64,000 nucleotides of DNA from positions 32,001 to 96,000 of IMG/VR virus record IMGVR_UViG_3300037466_003065; one strand, given 5' to 3'. This document shows positions 10,890 to 53,270 of the stretch, in pieces (position 1 is the stretch's first letter; each line of letters begins with the position of its first letter). A program made the translations under genes and the position numbers. The stretch is from a virus. The notes below the pieces were generated by a model. That model was not told the DNA's origin. It searched no databases and saw only the letters and a list, made by a program, of their open reading frames with translations.

Positions 10890-11405
10890 TTACAGGTTGT
10901 TGTCCCAGAGGCCGGTTAGATTCATTTCTTTCATCAGCTCGATCCACCGTGCTGTGGGCGTTTGTTGTCGCCCCATGTTGGCCCATGAGCAGCACAGCAC
11001 GATGTTGTCAAGTACGTACCCCTTTGAGCAGTCGAGCCGGTCTACACTCACCGACTTCGGGTTGGCCCACCGCCCGTGGACGAGCGACATATCCATCCCG
11101 CTCCAGTAGCACTTGCCTGCCTGAGACTCCCAAAGGTGCCGCAGGTCGCCCTGCTTGATGGTGAAGGGCCACCCTCTTTTGCGGCACGTCTTCTTGATGT
11201 TCTTGCAGGTAGTCGCGAAGGGGTGCTTCTCGTGGTACTCCTTCGAGTAATCCCGGTAGTGCTTAGGCTTGTTTTGGCGGCAACGCTTGCCCGCCTCCGA
11301 AGTGCAGGCACGACACCATGAGGCCCGACCCAGCTTTGCTTTCTTATTGAGTGCAAAGAGGATCAGCTCCTTGTCGTGCCCACACTTCGGACACCTCTTC
11401 TTCAC
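10890..11405 (-). CDS. HNH-type homing endonuclease-like protein with N-terminal Zn finger
   Basis: CPKC...CRAC N-terminus and KCYWSG...SVDRLDCSKGYVLDNIVLCCSWAN. GTGA overlap with the thyX stop. Confidence 0.8.
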   Translation of the reverse strand: MKKRCPKCGHDKELILFALNKKAKLGRASWCRACTSEAGKRCRQNKPKHYRDYSKEYHEKHPFATTCKNIKKTCRKRGWPFTIKQGDLRHLWESQAGKCYWSGMDMSLVHGRWANPKSVSVDRLDCSKGYVLDNIVLCCSWANMGRQQTPTARWIELMKEMNLTGLWDNNL

Positions 11406-35339: not shown

Positions 35340-35825
35340 GTGGCTGGCTTTCCGAAGCATGAGATCAAGTTCAAGCCGGCGATGTGTCACCCTGACAAGC
35401 CGGCTTGGGCCCGTGGCCTGTGCAAGAACTGCTACAACAAATGGCTCCTGGCCAACAACCCCGCATACAAGGCGAAGCAGCAAGAGAACACTGACAGGTG
35501 GCACAAGAAGCACCCCGAACGGGTCTCGGGCCACAAGAAGAAGTGGGAGAAGGCAAACGGTAAGGCCGCATCCCGCCGCAAGGTGCTTCAGCAATACGAC
35601 CTCACTGAGGCCGACTACCAGCGGATGCTCACAAAGCAGGGAGGCGTCTGTCAGATCTGCCTGCAGCCGCCCAAGCCTGGTAAGTCGTTACATGTCGACC
35701 ACTGCCACGAGTCGGGGCGTGTCCGGGGTCTGCTTTGTTTCCGCTGTAACTTTGGTTTGAGCTGGTTTGCCGAGTCTGCCGAACGAATGGAGCGGGCGGT
35801 CGCCCACCTGAAAGGAACATCATGA
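35340..35825 (+). CDS. Endonuclease VII-like HNH nuclease
   Basis: YDLTEADYQRML..QGGVCQIC...LHVDHCHESGRVRGLLCFRCN. Confidence 0.88.
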   Translation: MAGFPKHEIKFKPAMCHPDKPAWARGLCKNCYNKWLLANNPAYKAKQQENTDRWHKKHPERVSGHKKKWEKANGKAASRRKVLQQYDLTEADYQRMLTKQGGVCQICLQPPKPGKSLHVDHCHESGRVRGLLCFRCNFGLSWFAESAERMERAVAHLKGTS

Positions 35826-36295
35826 GCGAAGTATTGAAGAGCGATAAGCCGGAGCGTGAATTTGGCACCGGCGCCATTCGCGACAACGCCGAGGGCAAGG
35901 GTCGCTTCGACCTCGTCCCTTGGACTGCGATCTGGGATTTGGCGAAGTACCAGGAGGTCGCATCGAAGCGGTACCCCTCCGACAACTGGAGGCACGGGAT
36001 CCCGCTGCGCACGTTCCTCGACTCGGCCCTGCGTCACCTGATCAAGCTGACGCTCGGCATGCAGGACGAGGATCACTGGGCGGCGGCCATGTGGAACCTC
36101 ACGTGCATGCGTGAGACCTACTACATGGTCAAGCTCGGGAAGATCCCCCAATTCGTCGACGACCCCAAGAATCCGGGCAAGCAGATCGACCTCCTCGACC
36201 TGCCGGCCTGGTTCGACATGGCGACGGTGACCAAGGACAACAGGCTGGTGCTCCGCGAGGAGCCGAAACTGCCAGCGGGCAGCCCGCCTCTGTAA
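35822..36295 (+). CDS. dATP/dGTP diphosphohydrolase-like protein (DUF5664 family)
   Basis: FGTGAIRD..GKGRFDLVP...KRYPSDNWRHGIP...DSALRHL...EDHWAAAMWN. Confidence 0.85.
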   Translation: MSEVLKSDKPEREFGTGAIRDNAEGKGRFDLVPWTAIWDLAKYQEVASKRYPSDNWRHGIPLRTFLDSALRHLIKLTLGMQDEDHWAAAMWNLTCMRETYYMVKLGKIPQFVDDPKNPGKQIDLLDLPAWFDMATVTKDNRLVLREEPKLPAGSPPL

Positions 36296-36319
36296 CTATT
36301 CGCCCAGAAGGAAGGCATC

Positions 36320-36724
36320 ATGGAAGAAGAGATCAAGAAGCTGCCACGGTACGTCAAGACCTGGCTGAGCGGCCTGAAGCTGCTCACGCCGGACATGATC
36401 CAGGCCGCACCGCTCACGATGTGCGACCGCCGGGATCTGATCCAGGCGTACATGTTCCACCGCAACGTGCCCGTCGCCCAGGCCCAAGCAGAACTACGGA
36501 CGCTCGACGAGATCATCGTCGCGCTGTGCAAGCACGACGACATCACCAACGGCGAAGTCAAGCGGGTGAAGCAGCTCATGGAGAACAAGCATAGGGATAC
36601 GGGCAACTTCACCGCCGAAGAGGTCGCGTACGTCCTCCAGCTCAACACGAAGTACCTGTGCACGCCCAAGCGGCCCCCGGTCGGCGAGGGCAGCCCCACC
36701 AGCATGATCCCCGACCTCGGTTAA
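36320..36724 (+). CDS. Hypothetical protein (134 aa)
   Basis: RBS GAAGG, operon context. Confidence 0.7.
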   Translation: MEEEIKKLPRYVKTWLSGLKLLTPDMIQAAPLTMCDRRDLIQAYMFHRNVPVAQAQAELRTLDEIIVALCKHDDITNGEVKRVKQLMENKHRDTGNFTAEEVAYVLQLNTKYLCTPKRPPVGEGSPTSMIPDLG

Positions 36725-36740
36725 TCGGAAGGAATCTCCC

Positions 36741-38135
36741 TTGAAAGTGTCAACGCTCAGCCCGACCAAGCTCGAGACCGCCCGCCTCTGCGAGGCCCGC
36801 CTCGCGGCCAAGATGCACGACGAGGAGTACGAGGAGGAGCAGGGTTCCGGTGCCCTGATCGGCGTCCTCGCCCATGGCGCCGCCAAGAACTGGTACCGCT
36901 ACTGCTACTACACCAACCCGGAGACGGGCAAGATCGTCACCGGCGAGCCCAAGCCCACGGACGTCCGCGTCCCCGTCAACACCCCGGACGAGGCGTTCGA
37001 GGCCGCCATGCAGGAGTGTGCGGAGTCCGTCGACTTCGACGGCAACCCGGCCAGCCAACTCCCGAAGGAGCCCAACGACGTCATCGAGGCCCGGACGATG
37101 TTCGACATGATCATCGCCAACTACAACCGGGACGTCGTGAAGGTGCTGTACGCCGAACGCCGGTACAAGGGCCACCTGTCCAACGGCGTGCCGATCCACA
37201 CGATCATCGACCTGATCCTCGACCGCGGCAACGGCGTGATCGAGGTGGTCGACTTCAAGACCGGGTTCATCACCTGCACCGAGGACGAGATGATGAACAA
37301 GGATCAGGTTCTGATGAACCTGGTCGTCCTCAACCAGGATCAAGACCTCGCCCGCTTCCCGCACAAGCAGTTCACCTACTTCTGGGTGCGGAAGGGCTTC
37401 CAGACCGGGCCGGTCAGCATGCCGGTCGAGCGGCTGAAGGACTACGAGCTGTTCCTGCTCTACGAGTACCAGCGGCTGCTGAACATCCAGGAGCCGAAGG
37501 AGTCGATCAACCGCTTCTGCGGGAGCTGCGGGCGCCGGCACAAGTGCCAGAAGTTCGCCGACTTCGTCGCCGAGGCCCTCGGCAAGCCCAAGGAGCTGAC
37601 CCCGGAGGAGGCGGCCGCCGTCGACGACGAGACCCTGCTCTCCCAGAGCGACCTGCTCAAGGGCCAGATCCAGTTGCTGGAGTCCCGCCGCGAGGCGATC
37701 GGCGAGGTCATCAAGCTGCGGATGAAGAACGCCAACGTCAAGGAGATCGTCGGCGACAAGTTCAAGGTGCGGCTGCAGCAGAACATCTCGACCAGCTACA
37801 GCTACACGACCGTCGCGAGGCTGTGTAACGAGCGGAACGTCAACCTTGGCGACCTCGTGTCGCTCAGCAAGTCGAAGGTCGAGGCGGCGTTCAGCTCGGA
37901 CGCCGATGCCATGGCCGCCCTAACCCAGACGATGCAGAAGTTTTCGACTGCACCGTTCATCGTTGTCTCGCCGAAGAGTGCTGCGAAGCGTACGGCGGCG
38001 ACGGCTAAGGCGGCCCTCGACGGCAGCCAGCCCGCCAAGCCGCGGGCCCCGCGCAAGCAGAAGGCCGACCCGGCACCCCAGTCGGTGGCCGAGGCGTCGG
38101 TCGCCCCGCCGCCCGACGACACCCCTGCACTCTAA
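36741..38135 (+). CDS. RecB/AddB/Cas4-like PD-(D/E)xK exonuclease
   Basis: LSPTKL...LC, G.LAHGAAK, IIDLILDRGNGVIEVVDFKTG, C-terminal RFCGSCGRRHKC. Confidence 0.85.
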   Translation: MKVSTLSPTKLETARLCEARLAAKMHDEEYEEEQGSGALIGVLAHGAAKNWYRYCYYTNPETGKIVTGEPKPTDVRVPVNTPDEAFEAAMQECAESVDFDGNPASQLPKEPNDVIEARTMFDMIIANYNRDVVKVLYAERRYKGHLSNGVPIHTIIDLILDRGNGVIEVVDFKTGFITCTEDEMMNKDQVLMNLVVLNQDQDLARFPHKQFTYFWVRKGFQTGPVSMPVERLKDYELFLLYEYQRLLNIQEPKESINRFCGSCGRRHKCQKFADFVAEALGKPKELTPEEAAAVDDETLLSQSDLLKGQIQLLESRREAIGEVIKLRMKNANVKEIVGDKFKVRLQQNISTSYSYTTVARLCNERNVNLGDLVSLSKSKVEAAFSSDADAMAALTQTMQKFSTAPFIVVSPKSAAKRTAATAKAALDGSQPAKPRAPRKQKADPAPQSVAEASVAPPPDDTPAL

Positions 38136-38147
38136 GGAAGGACTCAC

Positions 38148-39557
38148 ATGAACAGCTTGTACCGCCGCACGCGGGTGCTGCTCGTGTCCGATCATCCCGC
38201 CCTCGACACCGGCTTCGGCCGGGTGATCAAGGAGATCGGCACGGGCCTCGCCCTCAGCGACCAGTTCGAGGTCGCCCAGCTCGCGTGGTTCCCGCAGTGG
38301 GCCAACCGCGACCGCATGATCCCGTACCGCATCTTCCCCACCGGCCAGGTCGGCACGATCGCCGAGCGTCAGGCCGACAGCTACGGCCAGGTCAGCTTCG
38401 ACAAGGTCGTCGCCGAGTTCCAGCCCGACGTCGTCCTCACGCTGGGCGACGTCCACTGGGTCGACCACATCGCCCGCCGGCCCCGCAGCCATAAGCTGGT
38501 CGGGTACATCCCGGTCGACTGCGGGCCGATCCCCAAGAGCTGGATGCGGACGCTGGCGGCCTTCGACGAGGTCGTCGCGTTCGGGAAGTTCGGCGCCCAG
38601 CAGATCTGGGCCCACGATCCGGGCAAGCTCCTCAAGATCATCCCTCACGGGTGCGACGCCGACACGTTCAAGCCGCTGCGGGGCAAGCCCAACCCGGCCC
38701 GCGAGGCGATCGCCGGCCCGTTCAAGTTCGTGGTCGGCACGGTCGCCCGGAACACGGGCCGCAAGAACCTCCCTCGCCTCCTGAAGGCGTTCAAGAAGTT
38801 CATCAGTCGATACGGCGTCTGCGAGAACTGTGAGACCGTCAACTTCCTCGAGCCCGACCAGCGTGAGTGTTCGTGCAGCAACTGTGGCGGCAATCACTTT
38901 GCCTGGGGCCCGGGCAAGGATGACGCCTTCCTCTACCTGCACACGGTGGCAAAGGACTCGGCCGGCTACGACCTGCACGCCCTGATCGACCGCCTCGGCC
39001 TCAAGGGACGCGTCGGGATCCCGGACGGCATGGAGGTGGGGCAGGGCGTCCCGGACGACGAGCTGAACCTGATCTACAACGCGATGGACGTCTTCACCCT
39101 TCCCACGATGGGTGAAGGCTGGGGCCTGCCGATCGCAGAGGCCATGGCCGCCGGCCGGCCCGTGCTGGTCACCAACTACTCCGGACACATGGAGTTCGTG
39201 CAGGACGCCGGCTCGACGATCGACGTCGCGGAGTTCGAGACCAGCACGACCCACGGGGGCGAGTTCGCCCTGGTCGACATCAACGACTACGTGATGAAGC
39301 TCGACCAGCTCTACTACGATTCGGACTCGTTCTGGACGAAGTGGGGCCGGCACCTGATGGCCGGCGGCGTCCCCGAGGAGGCCAAGTCGCAGTTCATCAC
39401 CGGCGACCCGCTCCGGCTCGAGCTGGGCAACCGTGCCCGCGGGAAGATGCTCGACTACCGCTGGAACCTGATCGTCGCCCAGTGGGCGAGTCTCCTGAGC
39501 AGCCTGGTGGGCACGAAGCCCACCGTCGCCGACATGCTCGGCATGGAGGAAATGTGA
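38148..39557 (+). CDS. GT-B glycosyltransferase (GT4-like) with Cys-rich insertion
   Basis: VLLVSDHPALDTGFGRV, IPHGCD, GTVARNTGRKN, YNAMDVFTLPTMGEGWGLPIAEAMAAGRPV. Confidence 0.9.
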   Translation: MNSLYRRTRVLLVSDHPALDTGFGRVIKEIGTGLALSDQFEVAQLAWFPQWANRDRMIPYRIFPTGQVGTIAERQADSYGQVSFDKVVAEFQPDVVLTLGDVHWVDHIARRPRSHKLVGYIPVDCGPIPKSWMRTLAAFDEVVAFGKFGAQQIWAHDPGKLLKIIPHGCDADTFKPLRGKPNPAREAIAGPFKFVVGTVARNTGRKNLPRLLKAFKKFISRYGVCENCETVNFLEPDQRECSCSNCGGNHFAWGPGKDDAFLYLHTVAKDSAGYDLHALIDRLGLKGRVGIPDGMEVGQGVPDDELNLIYNAMDVFTLPTMGEGWGLPIAEAMAAGRPVLVTNYSGHMEFVQDAGSTIDVAEFETSTTHGGEFALVDINDYVMKLDQLYYDSDSFWTKWGRHLMAGGVPEEAKSQFITGDPLRLELGNRARGKMLDYRWNLIVAQWASLLSSLVGTKPTVADMLGMEEM

Positions 39558-40696
39558 GCCACAGCCGCAACATCATCTGGCGGGGCGCCGCCACCGACCC
39601 GTCCGGGTACGGGGAGGCCACCCGCAACTACGTCCTGGGCCTCGCCGACGCGGCGGCCGTCAAGCTGCAGAACGAATCGTTCTTCAAGGGGCAGCCCTGC
39701 CTGAACCACTGGGCCACGCTGGAGCGGTTGCGTCGGACGCGCGTCGACAACGACAAGCCCCACACCTACGTGCAGCACCTGACCCCCGAGAACTACGTCA
39801 CCCTCCCCGGCCAGCACGTCTACCACGTCGGCATGACGACGTTCGAGACCGACCGGATCCCCGACCAGTGGCGCACGCCGATGCGGGCGATGGACGAGAT
39901 CTGGACGCACAGCACGTGGGGCAAGACCGTCTTCGAGGAGCAGGGCATCCGCAACGTTAAGGTCGTCCCCCACGGGGTCGACACGAAGCGGTTCACCCCG
40001 GAGGGGCCCGCGCTCGGCGTGATCGAGGAGAGCGGCCTTGGTCGCTCATTCCTGTTCGGCTCCAACTTCGACTGGACGGAGCGGAAGAACCCGCGGGCCC
40101 TGCTCCGGGCCTTCCTCGGCGAGTTTGGGCCGGACGACGACGCCGCCCTGGTGATCAAGTCGTACCATCAGTTCCCCCTCGAGCGGTCGCGGGCCTACAT
40201 CCGCGGCTACATCGAGTCGGTGCGAAAAGAGTTGGGTAAACGAAAAGGCGACTCCGCGCCGATCTATGTCATCAGCGACATGCTGGACGGCGAAGACCTG
40301 CCCAGCTTCTACCGGTCGCTCGACGCGTACGTCCTCCCGACGCGCGGCGAGGGCTGGGGCCTGACGTACAGCGAGGCCATGGCGTGTGCGGTGCCGACGA
40401 TTGGTACGGGATGGGGTGGCAACACCCAGTTCATGAACACGCGGAACAGCGTCCTGCTCAGTTCCAAGTTGGTGCCGATCACCGCCGAGCAGGCGGGGCC
40501 CCAGCGACAGTACGCGGGACACCGGTGGGCCGAAGTGGACGTCGACGAGCTGCGTGTGGTCATGCGGAAGCTCTACGAGAGCAACTCGCTGGCCCAGTTC
40601 GGTGCGGTCGCCCGCGGTGACATGGTCAAGTATTTCAGTTGGGAGAACGCCTGCGTCCAGGCAATCGACGCGCTCGAGTTCGACGTCGCCTTCTAG
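39554..40696 (+). CDS. GT-B glycosyltransferase (GT4-like)
   Basis: GTG 39554. DPSGYGEATR, TTFETDRIP, VVPHGVDT, TERKNPRALL, YVLPTRGEGWGLTYSEAMACAVPTI. Confidence 0.9.
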   Translation: MSHSRNIIWRGAATDPSGYGEATRNYVLGLADAAAVKLQNESFFKGQPCLNHWATLERLRRTRVDNDKPHTYVQHLTPENYVTLPGQHVYHVGMTTFETDRIPDQWRTPMRAMDEIWTHSTWGKTVFEEQGIRNVKVVPHGVDTKRFTPEGPALGVIEESGLGRSFLFGSNFDWTERKNPRALLRAFLGEFGPDDDAALVIKSYHQFPLERSRAYIRGYIESVRKELGKRKGDSAPIYVISDMLDGEDLPSFYRSLDAYVLPTRGEGWGLTYSEAMACAVPTIGTGWGGNTQFMNTRNSVLLSSKLVPITAEQAGPQRQYAGHRWAEVDVDELRVVMRKLYESNSLAQFGAVARGDMVKYFSWENACVQAIDALEFDVAF

Positions 40697-40703
40697 GAGA
40701 ACC

Positions 40704-41372
40704 GTGAGACGTACAAAGGACAACAGCAAGGAGCCGCTGGTCGAACTCGACCCCGGCAAGATGGTGGGGATGTTCGGGGTGAACTGGCGACAGTTGCCCA
40801 TGGTCTACGCGAGTTGCAACCTGCAGGGGACGCACGAGCAGCGCCAGCGGACGTACGACGGCCACTTCCGCATCGCCACGGAGCTGTGCCCCTTGGGCAT
40901 CCTGCTCTCCCCGCTCCGCAGCAACGGGGCCCTGGAGATCTGCGACGGCAGGGTCGGCAGCACCAGCCCGCTGAACTCCCTCACGCGGCCCGAGATCAGG
41001 GCACGAGACCTCAAGGACGTCGCCCGTTCCCGCGTCGTGATGCTCGACCTCGAAGCCCACGAGATCGAGTACGACGTGCTCGAGCGCGAGGATCGGATCG
41101 GTGCCACTCCCAAGGAGCACCGCCTGATCCGGGCCGGCTCGCCGCCCGGTTACCAGGCCAAGGTGCTCGGCCAGGTCACGATGCCCGCTCCGTTCACGGG
41201 CAGCGTCGTCGAGTGTTACGAGGCTTACCGGCTGGGCATCCCGGTCGTCGCGTACAACGCCCCCAAGCGAACCCCTCAAAGCTACTCGCCCTGGTTCGGG
41301 GACTTCTTCACCAAGGTGCTCGACACCGAGAAGGACGCGATCGAGTACGTCCGGCGTAACTGGCTGGTGTAA
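40704..41372 (+). CDS. Nucleoside 2-deoxyribosyltransferase / nucleotide N-glycosidase-like protein
   Basis: GTG 40704 with RBS AGGAG. IRARDLKDVARSRVVMLDL...TGSVVECYEAYRLGIPVVAY resembles the NDT/RCL fold motif. Confidence 0.6.
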   Translation: MRRTKDNSKEPLVELDPGKMVGMFGVNWRQLPMVYASCNLQGTHEQRQRTYDGHFRIATELCPLGILLSPLRSNGALEICDGRVGSTSPLNSLTRPEIRARDLKDVARSRVVMLDLEAHEIEYDVLEREDRIGATPKEHRLIRAGSPPGYQAKVLGQVTMPAPFTGSVVECYEAYRLGIPVVAYNAPKRTPQSYSPWFGDFFTKVLDTEKDAIEYVRRNWLV

Positions 41373-41404
41373 AGAACCACCCTCGTTCGGTCGATCATTT
41401 CACC

Positions 41405-41983
41405 ATGCTCAACATGGTGAAATCATTGATTGACGAGGGTCTCTCTTTGGCTCAAATCGGGGAGCGTGTTGGCTGGCACTATCTGAAGGTTTATCGCTTT
41501 CTCAACGAGCACGGGCTCAAGACCAAGCATCGTCGCAAGGCTCGCACCCTCCCTTCTCGCAATCGCCCCCACCTATGTGAGTGTGGCGAGTCAGACCCGT
41601 CTCGCTTCAGCAGGAAGAACAAAACCGTCTGCATGGCATGCGTCCAGGCTGCGGTACGTGTACGGGTTAAGCAGCTTCGCCGGCAGATGATCGATTTTCT
41701 TGGGGGGCAATGCTGCCTGTGCGAGTTCAGCTTGTACCCATCCGCGCTCCATATCCACCATTTCGATCCAGCGATCAAAGATCCGCGGCTAAAAAAGGAC
41801 GGGGATGCGTGGCTTAGTTGGCGATGGGAGCGAGTTGAGGTTGAGCTGAGAAAGTGCGTCCTTTTGTGTGCCAACTGTCATGCGGGGGTTACTTGGGATG
41901 GCGCTATTGTCCCCCCGAATAAAATGCCACCTCACCTCTTGTACTCGAATTTAATCCCGGGTACATTACCTACCCATAAGTGA
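41405..41983 (+). CDS. HNH homing endonuclease-like protein with N-terminal HTH
   Basis: GLSLAQIGERVG HTH, CECG..CMAC, GGQCCLC...LHIHHFDP...KCVLLCANCH. Visibly lower GC than its neighbours. Confidence 0.85.
   Translation: MLNMVKSLIDEGLSLAQIGERVGWHYLKVYRFLNEHGLKTKHRRKARTLPSRNRPHLCECGESDPSRFSRKNKTVCMACVQAAVRVRVKQLRRQMIDFLGGQCCLCEFSLYPSALHIHHFDPAIKDPRLKKDGDAWLSWRWERVEVELRKCVLLCANCHAGVTWDGAIVPPNKMPPHLLYSNLIPGTLPTHK
41939..41968 (+). promoter_or_regulatory. Sigma-70-like promoter with overlapping TAATC-N7-CATTA site, inside the 3' end of the HNH gene
   Basis: TTGTAC(41939)-N17-TACATT(41962); TAATC-ccgggta-CATTA at 41952-41968. Confidence 0.55.
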
Positions 41984-41993
41984 GTCTGATCCC

Positions 41994-42593
41994 ATGAATA
42001 ATCCCACCACCAAGAGCTTTGAGGACTGGCGGCGGGAGTTGGACGGGGCGTACCCACCGGGTCGCCTCGTCCACTCCTACGGGGGAGACCACCCGAACAT
42101 CCTGATCGTGGGGTACAAGGCCGTCCGCGGCGAACAGCACCCGTTCCAGACGTCCCCGGGCATCAGGGTGGTCGAGGGCCTCGTCCGCCTCGGCGTGCCC
42201 CCGGCGGCCGTCCGGATCGGCTACCTGTTCCGCGACCACGAGGCGCCGAACGACGATAAGGCGTGTACCAAGCTGTGGGTCAAGGAGCTCATGGAGGAGA
42301 TCGACATCCTCAAGCCCCGGGCCGTCCTCCTGCTCGGCAAGCGGGTGGCCGACACCATCCTCGGCGTCAACGACAACGACATCGACAAGTACCGCCGCAC
42401 CCGGTTCGCCACCAAGCCGCTGGGGGTCAACTTCATGGTGACCTACTCGCCGGAGGAGCTGGCGGCCGCCGGCGACTGGGACACCGAGACCTCCAAGACG
42501 TTCATGGAAGACCTCTTCGCCCTGGTCACCGTGAACGAGAAGCACTACCCAAACCTGATCCTGCTCGCCCCGGCCAAGGAGGGGATGAAGTAA
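41994..42593 (+). CDS. Degenerate uracil-DNA glycosylase-fold (family 4-like) protein
   Basis: PNILIVGYKA, EEIDILKPRAVLLLGKRVADTILG, FMVTYSP. The canonical GEAPG and HP motifs are altered. Confidence 0.65.
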   Translation: MNNPTTKSFEDWRRELDGAYPPGRLVHSYGGDHPNILIVGYKAVRGEQHPFQTSPGIRVVEGLVRLGVPPAAVRIGYLFRDHEAPNDDKACTKLWVKELMEEIDILKPRAVLLLGKRVADTILGVNDNDIDKYRRTRFATKPLGVNFMVTYSPEELAAAGDWDTETSKTFMEDLFALVTVNEKHYPNLILLAPAKEGMK

Positions 42594-44071
42594 TGCCCAA
42601 GGCACCCGACATCCAGTTCCTCGACGACGCGGCCCACGTCGCCGCCCGCAAGTACATCGTCGAGCAGTTCCCCGGCGTCGTCGGCGTCAAGCTGAAGCAG
42701 GACGACGGCAGTCCGTGGCTGGTCAACCCGTCCAACAACACGACGTACAACGTCGCGGTCGGCATGCCCCAGCAGGATCCCCGCATCCTGACCGTAGCCT
42801 TCCTCGCCGGCGCCCTGCCGCGGTTCGGCCGGGTCGGTTCGGTCTGGTACGGCCTGCTCAACCCAGCCACCTCCCAACTCCACCTGATCACGACGGCCGA
42901 CCTGACGGCCCTGATGAACAACTGGCAGGCGACGGCCGGCGGGGTGACGGTGACCCAGAACGGCGAGTACCTGATGTTCCACCTGAACGTCGCGTACCTC
43001 CAGGACACCAACAAGATCCGCAAGACGTTCACGCTGGGCAAGGGCGACGACAGCTTCGACATGTTCCGCCGGCTCGACGGGGCCACGGACGACGGCTTCT
43101 GCCACCTGCACGCCCACTCGATGTACTCCCTGCTCGACGGGGCCACCTCGATCGAGGGCATGGCCCGGGCGGCGGCCCTGAACGGCCAGAAGGCGATGGC
43201 CCTGACCGACCACGGGGTCATGTTCGGCACGTGGAAGTTCTACAAGGCGTGCCGGGAGTGGGGCGTCAAGCCCCTGCTCGGCGTCGAGGCGTACGTCGTC
43301 GACGACCTGCACGACGGGTACCGCACCGCGGACGGCACCAAGGCCCGGTTCGAACACCACATGGGCATGGTGGCCATGAACGACGAGGGCTGGGGGAACC
43401 TCTGCCAGATGATGTCGGAGGCCAGCCGGGACTGGTTCCACTACGTCCCCCGGATCGGGCACGAGCTGATCCGGAAGTACAACAAGGGCATCATCTTCTT
43501 CACCGGCTGCTTTAAGGGTCTCGCCCCCTGGTACTGCCAGGACTTCGACCCGCCGCCCGCCGACATGCCTACCGGTCAGCACAAGTGGTGGTTCAAGAAG
43601 GATCTCGACCGGGCCTTCCGCTACCTCCAGTTCTACAAGGAGATGCTCGGCGACCGCCTGTACGGCGAGGTCATGAACATCGACTTCGAGCGGTACATGC
43701 GGTGCGTTCCGACGCTCCGCGAGATGTACGCCAAGCTCGGGATCAAGGAGTTCATGTCGAACGACTGCCACTACGAGACGGCCGAGGAGTCGATCGTCCA
43801 GGCCCTCGCGTCCCGCATCAACAACACGAAGGTCGACGAGCTGGGGGACAAGTTCACGAAGCAGGGCTGCTACTTCATCAAGTCGGTGGCCGAGATGAAG
43901 GCCGACTGGACGAGCCCGAATTTGTTCAGCACGACCATGGAGGTTGCCGAACGTTGCAACATCGACTGGTCGCCGAAGAAGGGGGAATCGAAGTATTTGT
44001 TCCCACGATTCCCAGTCGAAGACGATGTCGATTGGCAAGAGTTCTTGCAGAGCGAAGGAGCACGCCAGTGA
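42593..44071 (+). CDS. dnaE: DNA polymerase III alpha, N-terminal part: unknown ~160-aa domain plus PHP domain
   Basis: ATG 42593 (TAATG). FCHLHAHSMYSLLDG, LTDHGVMFG, LLGVEAY, HHMGMV, TGCFKG, SNDCHY. Ends YLFPRFPV...GARQ*. Confidence 0.9.
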   Translation: MPKAPDIQFLDDAAHVAARKYIVEQFPGVVGVKLKQDDGSPWLVNPSNNTTYNVAVGMPQQDPRILTVAFLAGALPRFGRVGSVWYGLLNPATSQLHLITTADLTALMNNWQATAGGVTVTQNGEYLMFHLNVAYLQDTNKIRKTFTLGKGDDSFDMFRRLDGATDDGFCHLHAHSMYSLLDGATSIEGMARAAALNGQKAMALTDHGVMFGTWKFYKACREWGVKPLLGVEAYVVDDLHDGYRTADGTKARFEHHMGMVAMNDEGWGNLCQMMSEASRDWFHYVPRIGHELIRKYNKGIIFFTGCFKGLAPWYCQDFDPPPADMPTGQHKWWFKKDLDRAFRYLQFYKEMLGDRLYGEVMNIDFERYMRCVPTLREMYAKLGIKEFMSNDCHYETAEESIVQALASRINNTKVDELGDKFTKQGCYFIKSVAEMKADWTSPNLFSTTMEVAERCNIDWSPKKGESKYLFPRFPVEDDVDWQEFLQSEGARQ

Positions 44072-44751
44072 ATCACATCGACCTCAATCGTATTGCCACG
44101 TCGTATCGTCCGATCCACCTGAACGTCCCGGATCACGCCAGCTTCCAGAACGAGCACGAGCCCCACGCCTTCAACGGCCTGGTGCAGCAGACCCTGAAGT
44201 GCGCGAACTTCAAGGACTGGAAGAACCGGATGACCCACCTCCAGATCTCCGAGCGTGATCTGAGCAACCCGCCGCCGACGCCCCGCTACCTCGAGATCGG
44301 GACGTACCGCGGGTGCAGCCTGGTGCAGGTCTTCGCGATGTGCCCGGGCATGGAGCTGCACACGCTGAACATCCTCCCCGAGCAGGCCCGGGACAAGACG
44401 ATCGAACTGCTCCCGAAGGAGGAGATCGGTCTCGCCGCACGTCAGCAGGGGATCGCGTTCACCCAGCACTACGGCGACAGCAAGGAGTTCGACTTCTCCG
44501 AGCTGGGCGAGTTCGACGTCATCTTCATCGACGGCTGTCACGAGCCAAGCTACGTCAAGTACGACGCCGTCACCGGCCGAAACCTGCTCTCGCCGGGCGG
44601 TGTCCTGATTTTCCACGACTACCACGACCGAAACGAGATCGGTCGCGGGGTCATGAAGATGCTCGACTACCTCAACTCCGGAGCCCTCTTCGACGGCCAA
44701 CTCCAGCACATCGAAGGCACCTCCCTCGTGTACTGGAGGAAGCCGCTGTGA
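44068..44751 (+). CDS. Class I SAM-dependent methyltransferase (Methyltransf_24-like)
   Basis: GTG 44068. RYLEIGTYRGCS, FDVIFIDGCHEPSYVKYD...LSPGGVLIFHDY. Confidence 0.88.
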   Translation: MNHIDLNRIATSYRPIHLNVPDHASFQNEHEPHAFNGLVQQTLKCANFKDWKNRMTHLQISERDLSNPPPTPRYLEIGTYRGCSLVQVFAMCPGMELHTLNILPEQARDKTIELLPKEEIGLAARQQGIAFTQHYGDSKEFDFSELGEFDVIFIDGCHEPSYVKYDAVTGRNLLSPGGVLIFHDYHDRNEIGRGVMKMLDYLNSGALFDGQLQHIEGTSLVYWRKPL

Positions 44752-44936
44752 AGCTGGTTACCCACTCCTTCAGCAAGCCGTGGATCAAGCTGTGCTGGGC
44801 CCTGTACTGGCCCGACAAGTACCGAGTCTTCCGCGTGACCTGGTGGCTCCTCGGCTTCATCCCCTTCTGGACTGGCGTCTACGCAACCCCCGACCAGACC
44901 GGCGTCGCAGACGCCCCCATCGACGAGTACACCTGA
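44748..44936 (+). CDS. Small Trp-rich hypothetical protein (62 aa)
   Basis: GTGA and TGATG coupling on both sides. Confidence 0.55.
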   Translation: MKLVTHSFSKPWIKLCWALYWPDKYRVFRVTWWLLGFIPFWTGVYATPDQTGVADAPIDEYT

Positions 44937-45124
44937 TGCGAGACCTTCACGACGACGACTACACCCCACCGCCCGAACCCGAAAACATCATGGAACTGGA
45001 CGAGAACGAGCGGATCATCCTCGGCCGCTATCGCCAGTGCGGCAGGGTAAGCACGGAAATCGCCAAGCTCTTCAACGACCTCGCAGCGAGCTACTCCAAT
45101 GAGAATCCTGATCGCCCGACATAA
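44936..45124 (+). CDS. Small hypothetical protein (62 aa)
   Basis: TGATG coupling at 44936. Confidence 0.55.
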   Translation: MRDLHDDDYTPPPEPENIMELDENERIILGRYRQCGRVSTEIAKLFNDLAASYSNENPDRPT

Positions 45125-45872
45125 CGGCCTCGGTGATATGGTGATGCTGTTCCCGTTCATCGGGACGTACCTCGCCGCCGGCCACCAGGTGACGGTGGAG
45201 ACCCACCCGCGGAACCATGAGTTCCTCCGTTGGGTCTTCCCCTCGGTTCAGACTCTAGCCTGCACGTGCGACCCCTACACTGACTTCCGCCAGCGACAGC
45301 ACGGGTTCGACGTGCTCCTCAACTACAACCGGCTCGAGCTCATTGACGGGTTGTACCGGGATCTCGGCTTGCCCGCCCTCAACTGGCAGTTGCAGTGCTT
45401 AGCAATCGCACTGCAGGCCGGTCTGCCTCGGGTCGCCGACCTGTCGCCCAGCGCGTACGTCGACTACCCGGTCAAGAAGGTCAGGGGGTCGGTGATGGTC
45501 TTCACGCGGTCGACCCATCACTCCCGCACCATGGGCCCGAGCGTCGTCGATCAGCTCCGCCAGAAGTACCCCAACGCCACGATCGACCCGGAGTACGAGA
45601 CCCAGGTCGGCCTCGCCGAACACATCGCCCACGCCGACCTCGTGATCGGCATGGACAGCGGTGCGATCCATGTGGCCGAGGCGTTCAAGACGCGGTGGGT
45701 CTGCCTGCACACGACGTTCGACGAGGCGTCCCGACACCAGTTCTACAAGCACGGCGTCTGCCACCAGTCCGATCACACCTCCTCGCCCTGTTACGCCCAC
45801 GACGGGTGCGGCTTCTGCGGCGGGGCGTGTCCGAGCGAGTTCAACATCAAGGAGCTCAGTAATGGCCAATGA
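45099..45872 (+). CDS. GT9-like glycosyltransferase (heptosyltransferase family)
   Basis: MRILIARHNGLGDMVM, IAHADLVIGMDSGAIHVAEA, C-terminal SPCYAHDGCGFC. Confidence 0.85.
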   Translation: MRILIARHNGLGDMVMLFPFIGTYLAAGHQVTVETHPRNHEFLRWVFPSVQTLACTCDPYTDFRQRQHGFDVLLNYNRLELIDGLYRDLGLPALNWQLQCLAIALQAGLPRVADLSPSAYVDYPVKKVRGSVMVFTRSTHHSRTMGPSVVDQLRQKYPNATIDPEYETQVGLAEHIAHADLVIGMDSGAIHVAEAFKTRWVCLHTTFDEASRHQFYKHGVCHQSDHTSSPCYAHDGCGFCGGACPSEFNIKELSNGQ

Positions 45873-46422
45873 GGCAAAGAAGGTTCTGTCCCGCGTCGAG
45901 AAGATGGTCAGCAAGGGCAAGGTCGTAGACCTCGGCTGCGGCCCCTTCAAGATCCACCCCAACGCGATCGGCGTCGACCCGGGCGGGTACGAGGGAATCG
46001 AGTCGCAGTCCTCGCTCGAGTACCTGAAGGCCCTGCCCGACAACAGCGTCGACGTGGTCTTCAGCTCGCACTACTTCGAGCACGAGCGGGAGATCGCCGA
46101 AGTCCTCGGCCACGTCACCCGCACCCTCAAGCCGGACGGCAAGCTAATCGCCTACCTGCCCAACCGCCTGGCTTACAAGGGCGCCGACGGGAACGACCCG
46201 AACGGCGACCACGTGAACCACTGGACGGCCGGCGAGTTCGCCGACCTGATCCTCGCGGTCACACCACTCGTCATCCTGTCCATCGAGAACCGCGTTGACG
46301 GCGTCCCGCCGAACCACGCGTTCACCGGCAACGGCGAGACCGAGCACCCCGACACCGGCAAGTGGGAGTACAGCTTCCTCGTCATCGCCCGCAAGCCCAA
46401 GCCCTCGGAGGTGGCGAAGTGA
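45862..46422 (+). CDS. Class I SAM-dependent methyltransferase (Methyltransf_11/23-like)
   Basis: ATG 45862. VVDLGCG, DVVFSSHYFEH, TLKPDGKLI. Confidence 0.85.
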   Translation: MANEAKKVLSRVEKMVSKGKVVDLGCGPFKIHPNAIGVDPGGYEGIESQSSLEYLKALPDNSVDVVFSSHYFEHEREIAEVLGHVTRTLKPDGKLIAYLPNRLAYKGADGNDPNGDHVNHWTAGEFADLILAVTPLVILSIENRVDGVPPNHAFTGNGETEHPDTGKWEYSFLVIARKPKPSEVAK

Positions 46423-46778
46423 TCTTCACCCTCCCCCTCTGGTTCCTCGCCTGCCACATGGTCGGCGACTACATCTTCCAGACCGACGACATGGCGGCCA
46501 AGAAGATGAGCTGCCCACAAGTGCGGACGAAGCACGTGATCTGGTACCTCGTCCCGTTCGCGATGACGGCGCCGCGGTTCATCTTCCTCCTGCACGGCCA
46601 CGGCCTCGACGCCTGGTACCGGTACCTCATGTTCCTGTTCACCCTCGGCCTGATGCACTGGATCACGGACATGCGGCGGTGGGCGTCCGGCGAGAAGTGG
46701 TGTGCGAAGCCCATCATGGTCGATCAGACCTTGCACGTGCTCCAGATCTCGCTCTGTACCTCCTGGTTCATCTGCTAA
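46419..46778 (+). CDS. DUF3307-like membrane protein
   Basis: GTG 46419. LACHMVGDYIFQTDDMAAKK...H...HWITD...DQTLHV. Confidence 0.75.
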   Translation: MIFTLPLWFLACHMVGDYIFQTDDMAAKKMSCPQVRTKHVIWYLVPFAMTAPRFIFLLHGHGLDAWYRYLMFLFTLGLMHWITDMRRWASGEKWCAKPIMVDQTLHVLQISLCTSWFIC

Positions 46779-46815: not shown

Positions 46816-49299
46816 ATGACCCACGACCCCGACCAACTGAACCGATTCTTGAAGTACAAGGTCATTAAAGGGTTCCGGGAAGCCGGCCTCCCGATGACCC
46901 AGCCCTACCTCGAGCGCATCGACTTCGAGCTGGGCATCATCAAGCAGATGGGCTTCGACCAATACTTCTTGATCGTGGCCGACCTGTGTCGGTTCATGCG
47001 GTCGAAGAAGATCAAGTTCCTCGTCCGCGGCTCGGGTTGCGGAAGCTGTGTCGTCTGGGGGCTTCGGATCTCGCACAAGTGGCTCGACCCGATCCAGTAC
47101 GGCCTCCCGTTCGAACGCTTCCTCAACCCGAGCCGGGTGACGATGCCCGACTTGGACATCGACATCCAGGACGACCGGCGGCACGAGGTCGTCACGTACA
47201 CGCTGGAGAAGTACGGCCGCGACCGGGTCGCCCGCATCATTACGTTCGGCACCATGGGCGCCAAGGTGGCGATCGCCGACACCTGCCGGGCCCTGCAGAT
47301 CGAGAACTACCAGGAGGTGGCGGCCAAGATCACCGCCCTGATCCCCGCCGGCAAGGGCGAGGACGGGAAAAACATCCGCATCGCCGACGAGCTGAAGCGG
47401 AACGAGGCACTGCGTGAGCAGCAGAAGCTGTACCCGCAGGTCTTCGAGATGGCCCAGAAGATCGAGGGCAAGGTGCGGCACGCGTCGATCCACGCGGCCG
47501 GCATCATCATCGCCCCCGACGTGATCACGAAGTACGCCCCGCTGTTCTTCAAGGGCAACCCGGACAACCGCTCCGAGGAGGACAACTTCCCCACGATCCA
47601 GTGGGACATGTACGACGCGGAAGAACGCGGCATGTTGAAGATGGACTTCCTCGGGCTCAAGACGCTCCGGGTCATCGACCAGACCGAGCGGCAGATCCGG
47701 GAGGTGCAGAAGGCCCGCGGCGAGGCGCCGACCTTCGACATCGACGAGATCGACCGGTACGACGACCCGGCCTGGCGGGTACTGGCGGCCGGGCAGACGG
47801 CCGGCGTGTTCCAGATCGAGCGGGGGTTCGTCCGCAACTTCGCCCGCCGCATGTCCCTGATGCGGAAAGACCCGTGGCAGCTCGCCATCCTGATCTCCAT
47901 CATCCGCCCCGGCATGATGGACACCGGCGCCACCGAGGAGTACCTCAAGCGTGCCTCCGGGAAGTCGGCCCCCACCCCGCTCGACGCCCTACTGGAGGAG
48001 ACCCTCAGGGGCAACTTCGGCCTGTTCGTGTTCCAGGAGGACTGCATGTGGGCGGCCGTGCGGATGGCCGGCCTCAGCCTGTCGAAGGCCGACGAGCTGC
48101 GTCGCGCGATCGGCAAGAAGAAGCCCAAGGACATGGCGGCGATCAAGCCCGAGTTCATCCAGGGCTGCATCAAGAACGGGGCGACGTTGGAGCGGGCCGA
48201 GTTCGTCTGGCAGAACATGGAGACGTTCGGCCGCTACGGGTTCAACAACGCCCACGCGGCGGCCTACGGGATGGTCGGCTCGTACCAGACGGCCTACCTC
48301 AAGGCCAACTGGCCCGTCCTGTACATGACGAACTTGATCAACTCCGAAGCCGGGGTGGGCAACAAGGACGACGGCTACAACTGCAAGGTCGCCGAGTACG
48401 TCGAGGAGTCCCGCATGATGGGCCTCAAGGTGCTCAAGCCGTGCGTCCTGAAGTCGCAGGCGATGTGCCACCCGGTGTGGCCCAACCAGATCCGCTTCGG
48501 CCTGTCGCTGGTCAAGAAGGTCAGCTCGGGCGCCGTCGCCTGGGTGGGCCAGAAGTGCCGAGACGCCGTGAGCCTGAAGGACTTCATGCTCAAGTCCCTG
48601 TCGATCGAGCTGAACGAACGAAACGAGGAGAGACCCCATGTCATGGTTGGGAAGGGAGACTTGGAAGGACTGGCCCTCTCCGGCGCTCTGGACGTGTTTG
48701 AGGGTAACCGCAGCCGCATCCTCGCGATGCTTCCGACTCTACAGGAGCTTGCGAAGGGGTTTCATGAACAGTCTTGCAAGGTTCGGGCCGGCAAAGGCGC
48801 TCGCATGCGCAAGACGCCGGAGGCGGTTATGCAGACGCTGGAGGCGTACCGGATCGAGGACGACGACATTCCGAACGAGATGACCCTCGAGCGCCAGCTC
48901 GAGCGTGAGCGGGAGGTGACCGGCTGCTACCTCTCCGACTCCCCGTTCACCCCGTACAAGTCGGCGATCGACCAATGGGTCACCTGCACGGTTGGCGAGA
49001 TTCTACAGGGGCACGCCGAACAGCCGATGATCTTCGTGGCCGTCCTGACCAAGTTCCGCGAGATTGTGGTCAAGAACGGCAAGAACGCCGGCCAGACCAT
49101 GGCCATCATGCAGTGGGGCGGCGTCGACGGCGACGTCGAGACCGCTGCTTTCAGCCGCCAGTGGGCCGACATCAAGGCCAAGCCGGGCGGCGTCGAGAAG
49201 GGCAAGGTCTACTTGGTTATGGTGACGCCGGATCGTGACGGCGTGCGGGTGAACATCAAGGATATTTTGAGGTTGAGCAACTGCGGCTACGCCGACTGA
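46816..49299 (+). CDS. dnaE: DNA polymerase III alpha, C-terminal catalytic part (palm/thumb/fingers/HhH/OB)
   Basis: ATG 46816. YLERIDFELGIIKQMGFDQYFLIVAD, VRGSGCGS, FERFLNPSRVTMPDLDIDI, HASIHAAG, LKMDFLGLKTL, YGFNNAHAAAY, EREVTGCYLSDSP. Confidence 0.95.
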   Translation: MTHDPDQLNRFLKYKVIKGFREAGLPMTQPYLERIDFELGIIKQMGFDQYFLIVADLCRFMRSKKIKFLVRGSGCGSCVVWGLRISHKWLDPIQYGLPFERFLNPSRVTMPDLDIDIQDDRRHEVVTYTLEKYGRDRVARIITFGTMGAKVAIADTCRALQIENYQEVAAKITALIPAGKGEDGKNIRIADELKRNEALREQQKLYPQVFEMAQKIEGKVRHASIHAAGIIIAPDVITKYAPLFFKGNPDNRSEEDNFPTIQWDMYDAEERGMLKMDFLGLKTLRVIDQTERQIREVQKARGEAPTFDIDEIDRYDDPAWRVLAAGQTAGVFQIERGFVRNFARRMSLMRKDPWQLAILISIIRPGMMDTGATEEYLKRASGKSAPTPLDALLEETLRGNFGLFVFQEDCMWAAVRMAGLSLSKADELRRAIGKKKPKDMAAIKPEFIQGCIKNGATLERAEFVWQNMETFGRYGFNNAHAAAYGMVGSYQTAYLKANWPVLYMTNLINSEAGVGNKDDGYNCKVAEYVEESRMMGLKVLKPCVLKSQAMCHPVWPNQIRFGLSLVKKVSSGAVAWVGQKCRDAVSLKDFMLKSLSIELNERNEERPHVMVGKGDLEGLALSGALDVFEGNRSRILAMLPTLQELAKGFHEQSCKVRAGKGARMRKTPEAVMQTLEAYRIEDDDIPNEMTLERQLEREREVTGCYLSDSPFTPYKSAIDQWVTCTVGEILQGHAEQPMIFVAVLTKFREIVVKNGKNAGQTMAIMQWGGVDGDVETAAFSRQWADIKAKPGGVEKGKVYLVMVTPDRDGVRVNIKDILRLSNCGYAD

Positions 49300-51800: not shown

Positions 51801-53270
51801 ATGCCATTGATTAACCCGCCCGCCCCGGTCAGCTCTGTGGCCGGCAAGCAGGGCGACGTATCCCTCGAGGTCAGCGACGTCAACTCGCTGGGCTTTACGC
51901 TCAGCAGCAAGGTTGGCCTTTCGATGATCAACGCCCCCAACGGGGTGATGGGGCTGGACGCGGACGGCAATGCTGTCGGCACGTGGCAGGTGCGACAAGG
52001 CACGAGCGCCCAACTGGCCGGCACCGTTGCCGAGCCCGGCGAGCCCGTGCTGAACACCGACACGGGCGTCCTGTACGTCGGCTGGAACAACCTGTCGCCC
52101 GGCATCGCCGTGGGCAGGCCCGTTACCAAAACGGTTCCCGTTGACACTACTGTCGCCAGTGCCCTGAACGTTGACGCCACCGGCTATGACGTCGTGCGGC
52201 TGACGTGCTCGAATGTCGACGTCAGCCGCGCCCGGGGATTCTCGCTCGCCGCCGGCACCGCTGTCGGCCAGCGGGTGCGGGTGGAGTGGGACTTCACGGC
52301 GAAGTGGGTGACCGCCCCGGCCGGCGCCCAGCTCACGCTCACGTTCACCGACGTCCTGAGCAACGCCGTGAAGATGACCAGCGGCTTCGACGACTCGGGC
52401 AGCGGGTACGGGATGGCCGGGTCGATGGAGGTGGTGTGGGCGGACCTCGGCGCGGGCTTCGTCGGGTGGCTGATCGAGGCGTACCGGCCGGGCGTGGGCG
52501 TGAGCCAGACCAGTACCTTCCCCTACGGGCTGAACGTGGGGAGCAACTCCGTGGGCGCCGTGCCCACGGCCAGCGGCGGGATCGTCCCGTGCGGCGCCGT
52601 CGGCCTCAGCAACATCGTCAGCGGCGCCGGCTCGTTCGCGGTCGGCAGCTCCAACACGCTCCAGGCGGGCAACATGCTCGCCATCGGCCAGGGCAACGGG
52701 CAGACCGGCACGTCGAACATGTCCTACTCGCTGCTGCTCGGCCAGAACAACCGCGCCGGGAACGTCAGCAGCCTTGTGATGGGCAACCGGGCCAAGGGTG
52801 GGCTGCCGTATGGCTATTACCAGGCCAGCGAGTCGGCGGGGGCGAGCAGCAGCTATGGTACCACCCAGTACGAGCGGCACGTGCCCTGCGGCCAGACCAC
52901 GGACGCGACGCCCAAAGACCTGAAGATCGGCAACAACAACACCATCGGCGACTTCGTGCGACTGATCGGCGCCGGGGCGGCGGGGGCGTACGACATCAGT
53001 GTGGTGGGGTGGTCGCACACCCTTCAGGAATCGTTCGCCATCTGGTTCCGTGCCCTGATCCAGCGGGACACGTCCAACAACACGACGATCGTCGGCTCGA
53101 CCGAGATCGCCCGCATCTCGGGCACGAACATGACCGGATGCAACGTGGGGTTGTCCATGTCGGCCGCCAACAGCGGCCACCTGGCCATCACGGTGACGGG
53201 ACTCGCCGCCAACACGATTACGTGGACGGCCGCCGCCAAGGCGGTCGTTAGCCAACAGGTGACGCGATGA
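51801..53270 (+). CDS. Tail fibre / receptor-binding-like protein
   Basis: VSSVAGKQGDVSL and RQGTSAQL...GEPVLNTDTGVLYVG motifs typical of tail fibres; Gly/Asn/Ser-rich beta-helix-like centre. Confidence 0.7.
   Translation: MPLINPPAPVSSVAGKQGDVSLEVSDVNSLGFTLSSKVGLSMINAPNGVMGLDADGNAVGTWQVRQGTSAQLAGTVAEPGEPVLNTDTGVLYVGWNNLSPGIAVGRPVTKTVPVDTTVASALNVDATGYDVVRLTCSNVDVSRARGFSLAAGTAVGQRVRVEWDFTAKWVTAPAGAQLTLTFTDVLSNAVKMTSGFDDSGSGYGMAGSMEVVWADLGAGFVGWLIEAYRPGVGVSQTSTFPYGLNVGSNSVGAVPTASGGIVPCGAVGLSNIVSGAGSFAVGSSNTLQAGNMLAIGQGNGQTGTSNMSYSLLLGQNNRAGNVSSLVMGNRAKGGLPYGYYQASESAGASSSYGTTQYERHVPCGQTTDATPKDLKIGNNNTIGDFVRLIGAGAAGAYDISVVGWSHTLQESFAIWFRALIQRDTSNNTTIVGSTEIARISGTNMTGCNVGLSMSAANSGHLAITVTGLAANTITWTAAAKAVVSQQVTR

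Follow-up and report, generated by a model that had tools for sequence, protein, structure and literature searches.

The 11-kb region at positions 35822-46778 of the stretch analysed here (the window: 64,000 nucleotides, bases 32001-96000 of the 184,787-bp IMG/VR virus record IMGVR_UViG_3300037466_003065, CheckV completeness 100%) consists of a conserved replication backbone, a conserved pair of GT4-type glycosyltransferase (GT) genes, GT4-1 and GT4-2, and two slots that tend to gather sugar genes. An earlier note on this DNA had described the region as one glycosylation and methylation system woven into the replisome operon. This proved too broad: because most of the genes it listed are variable cargo absent from the core shared with relatives, the region is better viewed as a mosaic. 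The GT pair itself belongs to a virus-specific GT4 family, unlike the GTs of actinophages, and is among the few genes conserved throughout an environmental clade, inside the replisome operon. Based on sequence comparisons and gene context, we tentatively propose that this GT4 module glycosylates a phage component, probably a virion protein, with a methylated glycan.

The source phage (G000) has a guanine-plus-cytosine (GC) content of 65%, and gene calling was straightforward because GC at third codon positions (GC3) is ~0.9 in its real genes. At least nine metagenome runs from soil and rhizosphere contained its DNA, and no RNA sequencing run was among the runs listed as carrying it. The 11-kb region gave no megablast match to isolated phages, in which the candidate capsid protein was likewise without a match and DnaE found its best match at 34% identity. 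A DnaE search led to a syntenic relative, G001 (193,655 bp, GC 65%), the whole record of which was compared, and two further relatives, G002 (181 kb, GC 40%) and G003 (178 kb, GC 29%), are complete genomes with direct terminal repeats. These four complete or near-complete genomes belong to an uncultured and apparently undescribed clade of 156-194-kb phages with GC contents of 29-65%. The group of 155-190-kb phages related to Flavobacterium phage immuto (PMC11348598) may be distant kin of this clade; a "moraphage" paper (PMC12619734) also mentions core GTs, but concerns a lineage different from that of G000. Only 34 G000 proteins had tblastn matches in all of G001, G002 and G003, and these include virion proteins, TerL, RecA, DnaB, DnaG, RuvB, both halves of DnaE, a dGTP_diPhyd_N protein, and both GT4s.

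Across G001-G003, tblastn identities were 39-43% for GT4-1 (43% for the G001 copy) and 40-45% for GT4-2 (44% for the G001 copy), on a par with TerL (44-52%) and the C-terminal part of DnaE (33-45%), and by this measure both GT4s are core genes of the clade. As the earlier note had recognised, both are assigned by Pfam match and motif to the CAZy GT4-type retaining GT-B enzymes: the E-x7-E motif is intact in each, and E323 and E331 of GT4-1 are invariant in the alignment of its family. The AlphaFold2 model of GT4-1 (predicted local distance difference test score, pLDDT, 91.7) resembles many GT4 structures. Between its two Rossmann domains, GT4-1 carries a Zn-ribbon insert (two CxxC, residues 225-246), and it ends in a conserved tail (residues 460-469, hydrophobic-x-hydrophobic-Glu-hydrophobic-hydrophobic) that may be a docking peptide. 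A quick maximum-likelihood tree placed GT4-2 in a separate clade as an old paralogue of GT4-1, and grouped GT4-1 with capsid-module GT4s, not with GT4-2. A search of 5.8 billion proteins returned ~100 relatives of GT4-1, many of them on 125-185-kb contigs.

The order nuclease-GT4-GT4-...-PHP half-...-DnaE core was kept in every relative examined. All relatives encode DnaE as two separate pieces, a PHP half and a polymerase core, and some have a cpYpsA (SLOG) domain fused to the PHP half; the nuclease lies directly upstream of the GT4 pair in relatives and has the corresponding place in immuto. Of the genes listed for the region, relatives share only the GT4 pair, the nuclease, dGTP_diPhyd_N and the two halves of dnaE. 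The dGTP_diPhyd_N protein, with homologues in G001 (41% identity), G002 and G003, is a conserved neighbour within the replication module and a nucleotide-pool enzyme, not a glycosylation gene. Conversely, the 34-protein core does not include the NDT-like, uracil-DNA glycosylase (UDG)-like, Methyltransf_24, GT9-like, Methyltransf_11, DUF3307, DpdA, or ThyX-like proteins. Conserved linkage, one of the conditions attached to the original proposal, was thus found for the GT4 pair and not for the NDT-like, UDG-like, GT9-like and DUF3307 genes or the particular methyltransferases.

Two slots receive cargo in these genomes, one after GT4-2 and ahead of the PHP half (slot 1), the other between the dnaE halves (slot 2). 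In G001, RuvC, dGTP_diPhyd_N, nuclease, GT4-1 and GT4-2 genes are followed directly by the DnaE PHP half, and slot 2 holds a GT, two Methyltransf_24 genes, RmlD-, RmlB- and RmlC-like genes, and a sulfotransferase-like gene. Another relative carries a UDG gene at slot 1 along with MazG, GT2/Anp1 and GT34 in slot 2. Methyltransferases or a third GT4 follow the pair in other relatives, and slot 2 in some consists of RNase T and a SNF2 helicase. The gap between the dnaE halves varies from 0.2 to 9.4 kb and is a cargo hot-spot with different content in each genome (including contigs L009, L023 and L024).

The acceptor was approached through the genomic contexts of this GT4 family in other phages. 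A profile scan of IMG/VR returned 183 GT4 relatives, from which 78 loci with GC contents of 29-66% were kept; their neighbours were clustered and representatives scanned. Within the clade and a sister group, GT4s lie in replication modules, and the largest other group (33 loci) shows the arrangement PolB-x-x-GT4-...-RNR (ribonucleotide reductase). Other loci place the gene among head genes: P22-type coat-GT4-Methyltransf_11-B12 radical SAM (S-adenosylmethionine) in ten loci, portal-MuF-...-methyltransferase-GT4-GT2 in five or six, HK97 capsid-x-GT4 in four, and a position near a Mu-type head protease in three, while contig L069 has a GT4-1-like and GT4-2-like pair between capsid and tail-sheath genes. 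Isolates add three further cases, namely Pontimonas phage phiPsal1 (major capsid protein-GT4-methyltransferase-GT2-neck), Synechococcus phage S-CBS4 (portal-x-GT4-GT2-methyltransferase) and Tetrasphaera phage TJE1 (sugar-nucleotide genes, a methyltransferase, and a GT4 upstream of the terminase). Many unrelated phages thus carry members of this GT4 family next to their capsid genes, and Methyltransf_11-type genes recur beside GT4 homologues in clade relatives as well as in other phage groups. A phage-made acceptor is favoured because the GT4 pair is conserved across very different hosts (GC 29-65%), and a virion protein in particular because this cross-host conservation is combined with repeated head-operon placement and recurrent methyltransferase pairing. 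The earlier note had offered glycosylation of virion proteins or of host lipopolysaccharide (LPS) as its second hypothesis; the virion part fits better, with GT4s and methyltransferases beside capsid genes in several groups, and host LPS is not the part we favour.

Families were assigned with Pfam, PHROGs and NCBIfam, and all genes of 35822-46778 are on the + strand. The operon and its immediate flanks read as follows:

35340-35825, +, endonuclease VII (GC3 0.75, lower than the genome's ~0.9)
35822-36295, +, dGTP_diPhyd_N protein with a MazG-like nucleotide pyrophosphohydrolase domain, 157 aa (PF18909 E 4e-15; phrog_18716, phrog_801)
36320-36724, +, 134-aa protein of no family (no Pfam or PHROG match; GC3 0.89, native codon usage)
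36741-38135, +, PD-(D/E)XK (Cas4/RecB-like) nuclease, 464 aa (PF12705 E 1e-10, residues 5-270)
38148-39557, +, GT4-1, predicted soluble retaining-type GT-B glycosyltransferase, 469 aa (Pfam Glycos_transf_1 E 4e-14)
39554-40696, +, GT4-2, predicted second GT4 glycosyltransferase, 380 aa (Pfam Glyco_trans_1_4 E 2e-10; 4-base overlap with GT4-1)
40761-41372, +, NDT/DNPH1-like protein, putative nucleoside/nucleotide N-glycosidase fold, 203 aa (weak fold and feature matches)
41405-41983, +, HNH endonuclease (phrog_2255 E 3e-17; GC3 0.62)
41994-42593, +, UDG-superfamily protein with both catalytic motifs altered (PF03167 E 2e-7)
42593-44071, +, DnaE N-terminal half (PHP domain), 492 aa (Pfam PHP E 4e-34)
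44068-44751, +, Methyltransf_24 class I SAM methyltransferase, 227 aa (PF13578 E 1e-13)
44748-44936, +, Trp-rich hydrophobic small protein, 62 aa (open reading frame with GC3 0.905; 4-base overlaps with both neighbours)
44933-45124, +, acidic small protein, 63 aa, of less certain coding status (open reading frame only, GC3 0.75; no family match)
45099-45872, +, GT9-like (heptosyltransferase-like) protein, 244-257 aa (PF01075 E 1e-6, residues 171-213 only)
45904-46422, +, Methyltransf_11-type SAM methyltransferase, 172 aa (PF08241 E 1e-8)
46419-46778, +, DUF3307 membrane protein, 119-138 aa (PF11750 E 3e-9; phrog_2470; hydrophobic span at residues 40-58)
46816-49299, +, DnaE C-terminal part (polymerase core, fingers, helix-hairpin-helix), 827 aa (PF07733 E 8e-73; PF17657)

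The inventory given in the earlier note was largely borne out by these assignments, including the dATP/dGTP diphosphohydrolase-like gene, the altered UDG fold, the Methyltransf_24 and second SAM methyltransferase genes, and the DUF3307 gene. Its GT9 and NDT assignments correspond to weak matches, and the 464-aa gene is a nuclease and not a GT. The close gene spacing on which the earlier note's translational coupling rests was likewise borne out: adjoining genes in the operon either overlap by 1-4 bases or are separated by 10-64 bases. None of the GTs contains a 19-residue Kyte-Doolittle window (KD19) of at least 1.6, in agreement with the earlier view that they lack transmembrane segments, and the 62-aa protein, with a maximum KD19 of 1.09, also falls short of a membrane span. 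Promoter- or terminator-like sites were no commoner in the region than in shuffled sequence. Codon usage of the cargo genes is native (GC3 0.89-0.95). The HNH gene has a GC3 of 0.62 against 0.87-0.95 in its neighbours, and is probably a recent mobile (homing) insertion between the NDT-like and UDG-like genes.

Taken together, the 11 kb may be read as a replication and recombination operon that hosts a two-layer glycosylation module. The first layer would be the soluble, translationally coupled GT4 pair, located after the PD-(D/E)XK nuclease and before the PHP half and belonging to the clade core; the second would be exchangeable cargo in the two slots, represented here by the Methyltransf_24, GT9-like, Methyltransf_11 and DUF3307 membrane proteins. 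Judging from motif and fold, GT4-1 and GT4-2 would be active enzymes using host nucleotide-sugars, and could initiate and then lengthen a short glycan on an acceptor that the phage itself makes and conserves, in all likelihood a virion protein. Cargo transferases would then add a further sugar and O-methyl groups, and relatives would accordingly differ in the composition of the glycan. Genes for the dGTP_diPhyd_N protein, the nuclease, and the NDT-like, HNH and UDG-like proteins would have nucleotide, recombination or replisome functions and stand apart from the glycan pathway. If the acceptor is indeed a virion protein, many phages would have long worn sugar coats, varied through the exchange of methyl-, sulfo- and glycosyl-transferases, with a bearing on adsorption, persistence in soil, and immune recognition in phage therapy. 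To our knowledge, experimental proof of phage self-glycosylation is limited to a few actinophages.

The closest structural counterpart of GT4-1 is also viral. Chlorovirus NY-2A B736L (PDB 3OY2, 3OY7; A546L in PBCV-1) was its best structural match (Foldseek E 3.5e-22, template-modelling score 0.81 on the target) and the only PDB protein matching the GT4-1 family profile in both domains (3oy2, E 3.8e-18, domain 1 aligned over 5-217). The profile match includes an N-terminal xSGYG/TGFG motif and an RNxxRK motif, and since xS/TG(F/Y)G and RNxxRK are shared by GT4-1, GT4-2 and phage groups A-F, we place all of these among B736L-like viral GT4s. B736L differs from GT4-1 in being only 17% identical, in lacking the Zn-ribbon insert, and in coming from a eukaryotic virus. 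Mycobacteriophages are the established case of phage GTs that glycosylate virions (Che8 gp108-110, Corndog gp35-38, and Myrna; Freeman et al. 2023, as presented in PMC12363180): according to that account, the capsid and tail-tube proteins of the phage are modified by soluble GTs that it encodes itself, with methyltransferase-type domains. The Che8 GT genes lie outside the structural operon, as does the GT4 pair here, but GTs form an accessory cassette in mycobacteriophages, whereas the pair belongs to the core gene set in the clade described here.

Flavobacterium phage immuto is a cultured phage with the same local module and a published DNA chemistry; a published study of its virion glycans was not found. 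It encodes a PD-(D/E)XK nuclease, a small open reading frame, and two GTs homologous to GT4-1 and GT4-2 (hhalign probability 98.7%, E 3e-16, against the GT4-1 profile, and 99.7%, E 3e-27, against that of GT4-2), with a GT2, a methyltransferase, aminotransferases, an epimerase and further GTs downstream. For digests of DNA from its virions, high-performance liquid chromatography with ultraviolet and mass-spectrometric detection (HPLC-UV-MS) is reported to have given peaks of dA, dC, dT and a 324-Da fdPreQ1, and no sugar-bearing nucleoside was reported (PMC10516641). This comparison is a distant one (~23-25% identity, with no Zn ribbon in the GT4-1 homologue), and an assay of this type could miss adducts that resist nucleases. 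The candidate capsid protein of G000 had no detectable homologue in immuto. Immuto offers a cultured test system for this module. More generally, the present analysis shows that finding GT genes in a replisome operon is no proof of DNA modification.

Several observations weigh against a virion acceptor. The acceptor is deduced from gene context in other phage groups at 23-32% identity, and both the clade and the 33-locus PolB/RNR group carry their GT4s in replication or nucleotide modules, the usual site of DNA-modifying enzymes. Within the family, the Zn-ribbon insert is confined to replication-module versions, which the proposed function leaves unexplained. No shared Gly-Ser-type C-terminal tag was found in the core virion proteins of G000-G003, and sugar O-methylation by the two methyltransferases is an assumption. 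The known systems are of limited help here: Che8 gp108, the only protein of that system compared, scored an hhalign probability of 0.1% against the GT4-1 profile and a BLASTP E of 0.58 against GT4-2, and B736L gives no function to transfer because its own acceptor is not known; it binds GDP-mannose, although the NY-2A capsid glycan contains no mannose (PMC9614988).

Were the acceptor instead a host or small molecule (an envelope precursor, a glycolipid or a solute), the GT4 pair could act in superinfection exclusion or metabolic takeover. The structural matches ranking after B736L have small-molecule or lipid acceptors (sucrose-phosphate synthase, MshA, PimB', BshA and GlgM), PHROGs classes the GT4 family as moron or auxiliary metabolic gene, and the cargo includes the DUF3307 membrane protein and an LPS-heptosyltransferase-like domain. 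We nevertheless regard such an acceptor as unlikely: a pair kept at ~40-45% identity over GC contents of 29-65%, and thus in very different hosts, ill fits a host-specific envelope acceptor, repeated head-operon placement in small phages has no obvious rationale if the acceptor is a host or small molecule, and every match to a named bacterial family fell far under its cut-off. It also seems improbable that no common pathway exists and that the cargo consists of unrelated morons in permissive slots, with methyltransferases acting perhaps on protein, RNA or DNA. It is true that no cargo gene is conserved in G001-G003, that slot 2 in some relatives holds the non-sugar genes MazG, RNase T and SNF2 helicase, that both methyltransferases match generic class I models only, and that pairwise comparison showed no similarity between the GT9-like protein and the GT9 portion of two GT4-GT9 fusions, P0032 and P0033. 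Yet sugar-related genes occupy the slots of at least four independent relatives, isolates and unrelated phage groups have a Methyltransf_11/23-type gene adjoining their GT4 homologues, fusions of GT4 to a PF01075 domain do exist (P0032, P0033 and P0046), and the codon usage of the cargo, as noted above, is that of the phage itself.

The hypothesis placed first in the earlier note was DNA hypermodification read by a dedicated polymerase, in which the GT4 pair would glycosylate a modified base at the fork and the cargo would extend and methylate the sugar as a protection against restriction or CRISPR. The position of GT genes within the replisome operon, coupled to the nuclease and DnaE, speaks for such a role, as do the Zn ribbon of the replication-module GT4-1 versions, which could bind nucleic acid, the DpdA and divergent ThyX-like protein encoded by G000, the Q_salvage gene that directly follows the GT4 pair and an NDT-like gene in one relative (L109), and the GT4-like nature of the T4 alpha-GT itself by HHpred (PMC6024577). 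T4 alpha- and beta-GTs, RB69, DLP3 and metavirome 5mYOX clusters resemble the present case in having GT-Bs among replication genes, with several GTs building oligosaccharides. However, the known phage DNA glycosylation pathways adjoin ThyS or 5mYOX genes (bioRxiv 10.1101/2023.12.21.572611), and the 5-hydroxymethylcytosine and 5-hydroxycytosine pathways of those phages need a ThyA homologue, or a C5-methyltransferase together with a TET-like dioxygenase nearby, and neither set was seen in G000 or its relatives. A gene for a ThyA-like hydroxymethylase or hydroxylase (PF00303) was not detected in G000-G006, with 10 of 14 controls positive; TET/JBP (PF12851) had no match in G000-G003 or the other relatives searched, in a search run without a positive control; PurZ (PF00709) was missing in G000-G003 although all 14 of 14 controls were positive, so that the MazZ-PurZ Z-genome system is not represented; and a C5-methyltransferase occurs in G000 only. 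Genome-wide searches of this kind had been called for in the earlier note, which saw no hydroxymethylase, TET/JBP or PurZ gene in the window. A route for 5-hydroxycytosine arabinosylation (PMC13326640) was also considered and set aside, as it requires a ThyA homologue. In addition, G001-G003 keep the GT4 pair without DpdA or ThyX, immuto combines a homologous module and many sugar genes with the nucleosides listed above, and T4 GTs were not among the 50 best Foldseek matches of GT4-1. Hypermodification is hence unsupported by these data, and we consider it very unlikely. We give equally little credence to a variant in which the substrate of the Zn-ribbon GT4 pair would be nucleic acid, or a replication protein bound to DNA, modified by way of an undescribed base handle, possibly a 7-deazaguanine/queuine-type side chain as hinted by DpdA in G000 and Q_salvage in L109, although this, if true, would mean that DNA can be glycosylated in a novel way that does not depend on ThyA/TET chemistry.

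Individual cargo genes were often divergent. For the NDT-like protein, ESM Atlas features reached 0.92-0.94 to viral Nuc_deoxyrib_tr (PF05014) clusters without a Pfam match, and top Foldseek matches were DNPH1/Rcl/NDT, albeit at E 0.03-0.3 on a model with a pLDDT of 69. A TGTxxE motif is conserved in the six homologues returned by an exhaustive search. The gene has no counterpart in G001-G003 and is present after the GT4 pair in contig L109, and BLASTP showed no similarity between its product and the cpYpsA-PHP N-terminus of relatives. In L109 (GC 55%, positions 3937-5511), the NDT-like gene is followed by Q_salvage (PF10343, the queuosine-salvage N-glycosidase family), ahead of the PHP half.

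Family 4 UDGs are defined by the catalytic motifs GE(A/G)PG and HPS(P). The UDG-like protein has GYKAV in place of GEAPG and TYSP in place of HPSP, and at 20.6 bits against the family 4 model TIGR00758 (cut-off 125) it does not qualify as a member. The one-base overlap of its gene with that of the PHP half suggests that it is probably an accessory protein of the replisome; another relative has a UDG gene at the equivalent place, and a structural role is plausible by analogy with poxvirus D4, a UDG-fold protein that has such a role in the replisome. PDB sequence searches with the UDG-like and dGTP_diPhyd_N proteins gave no match, and the Methyltransf_24 protein matched nothing in PDB or NCBIfam. 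The GT9-like protein is not assignable to the GT9 LPS heptosyltransferases, its PF01075 match covering 43 residues and its scores falling under the cut-offs (25.9 bits against 185 for TIGR02193, 24 against 467 for RfaQ), and it had no match in isolated phages.

Three further genes of G000 lie outside the 11-kb region. A DpdA transglycosylase gene is located 54 kb from the GT4 pair (genome positions 130152-131135, - strand, equivalent to L005:17152-18135; PF23859 E 5e-67). It was not found in G001-G006, and is thus not linked to the GT4s; an earlier sequence-only reading had seen no preQ0-synthesis genes. This suggests that G000 DNA contains 7-deazaguanine made from a salvaged base. The divergent ThyX-like protein (window positions 11402-12256, - strand; partial Thy1 match, E 2e-12) is encoded beside an AAA_33 kinase-like gene and RecD2, and is missing from G001-G003. 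Finally, window positions 51807-53270, downstream of a Rad52-like gene, encode a protein of 487 aa in which an Mtd_N domain (major tropism determinant, N-terminal) was recognised.

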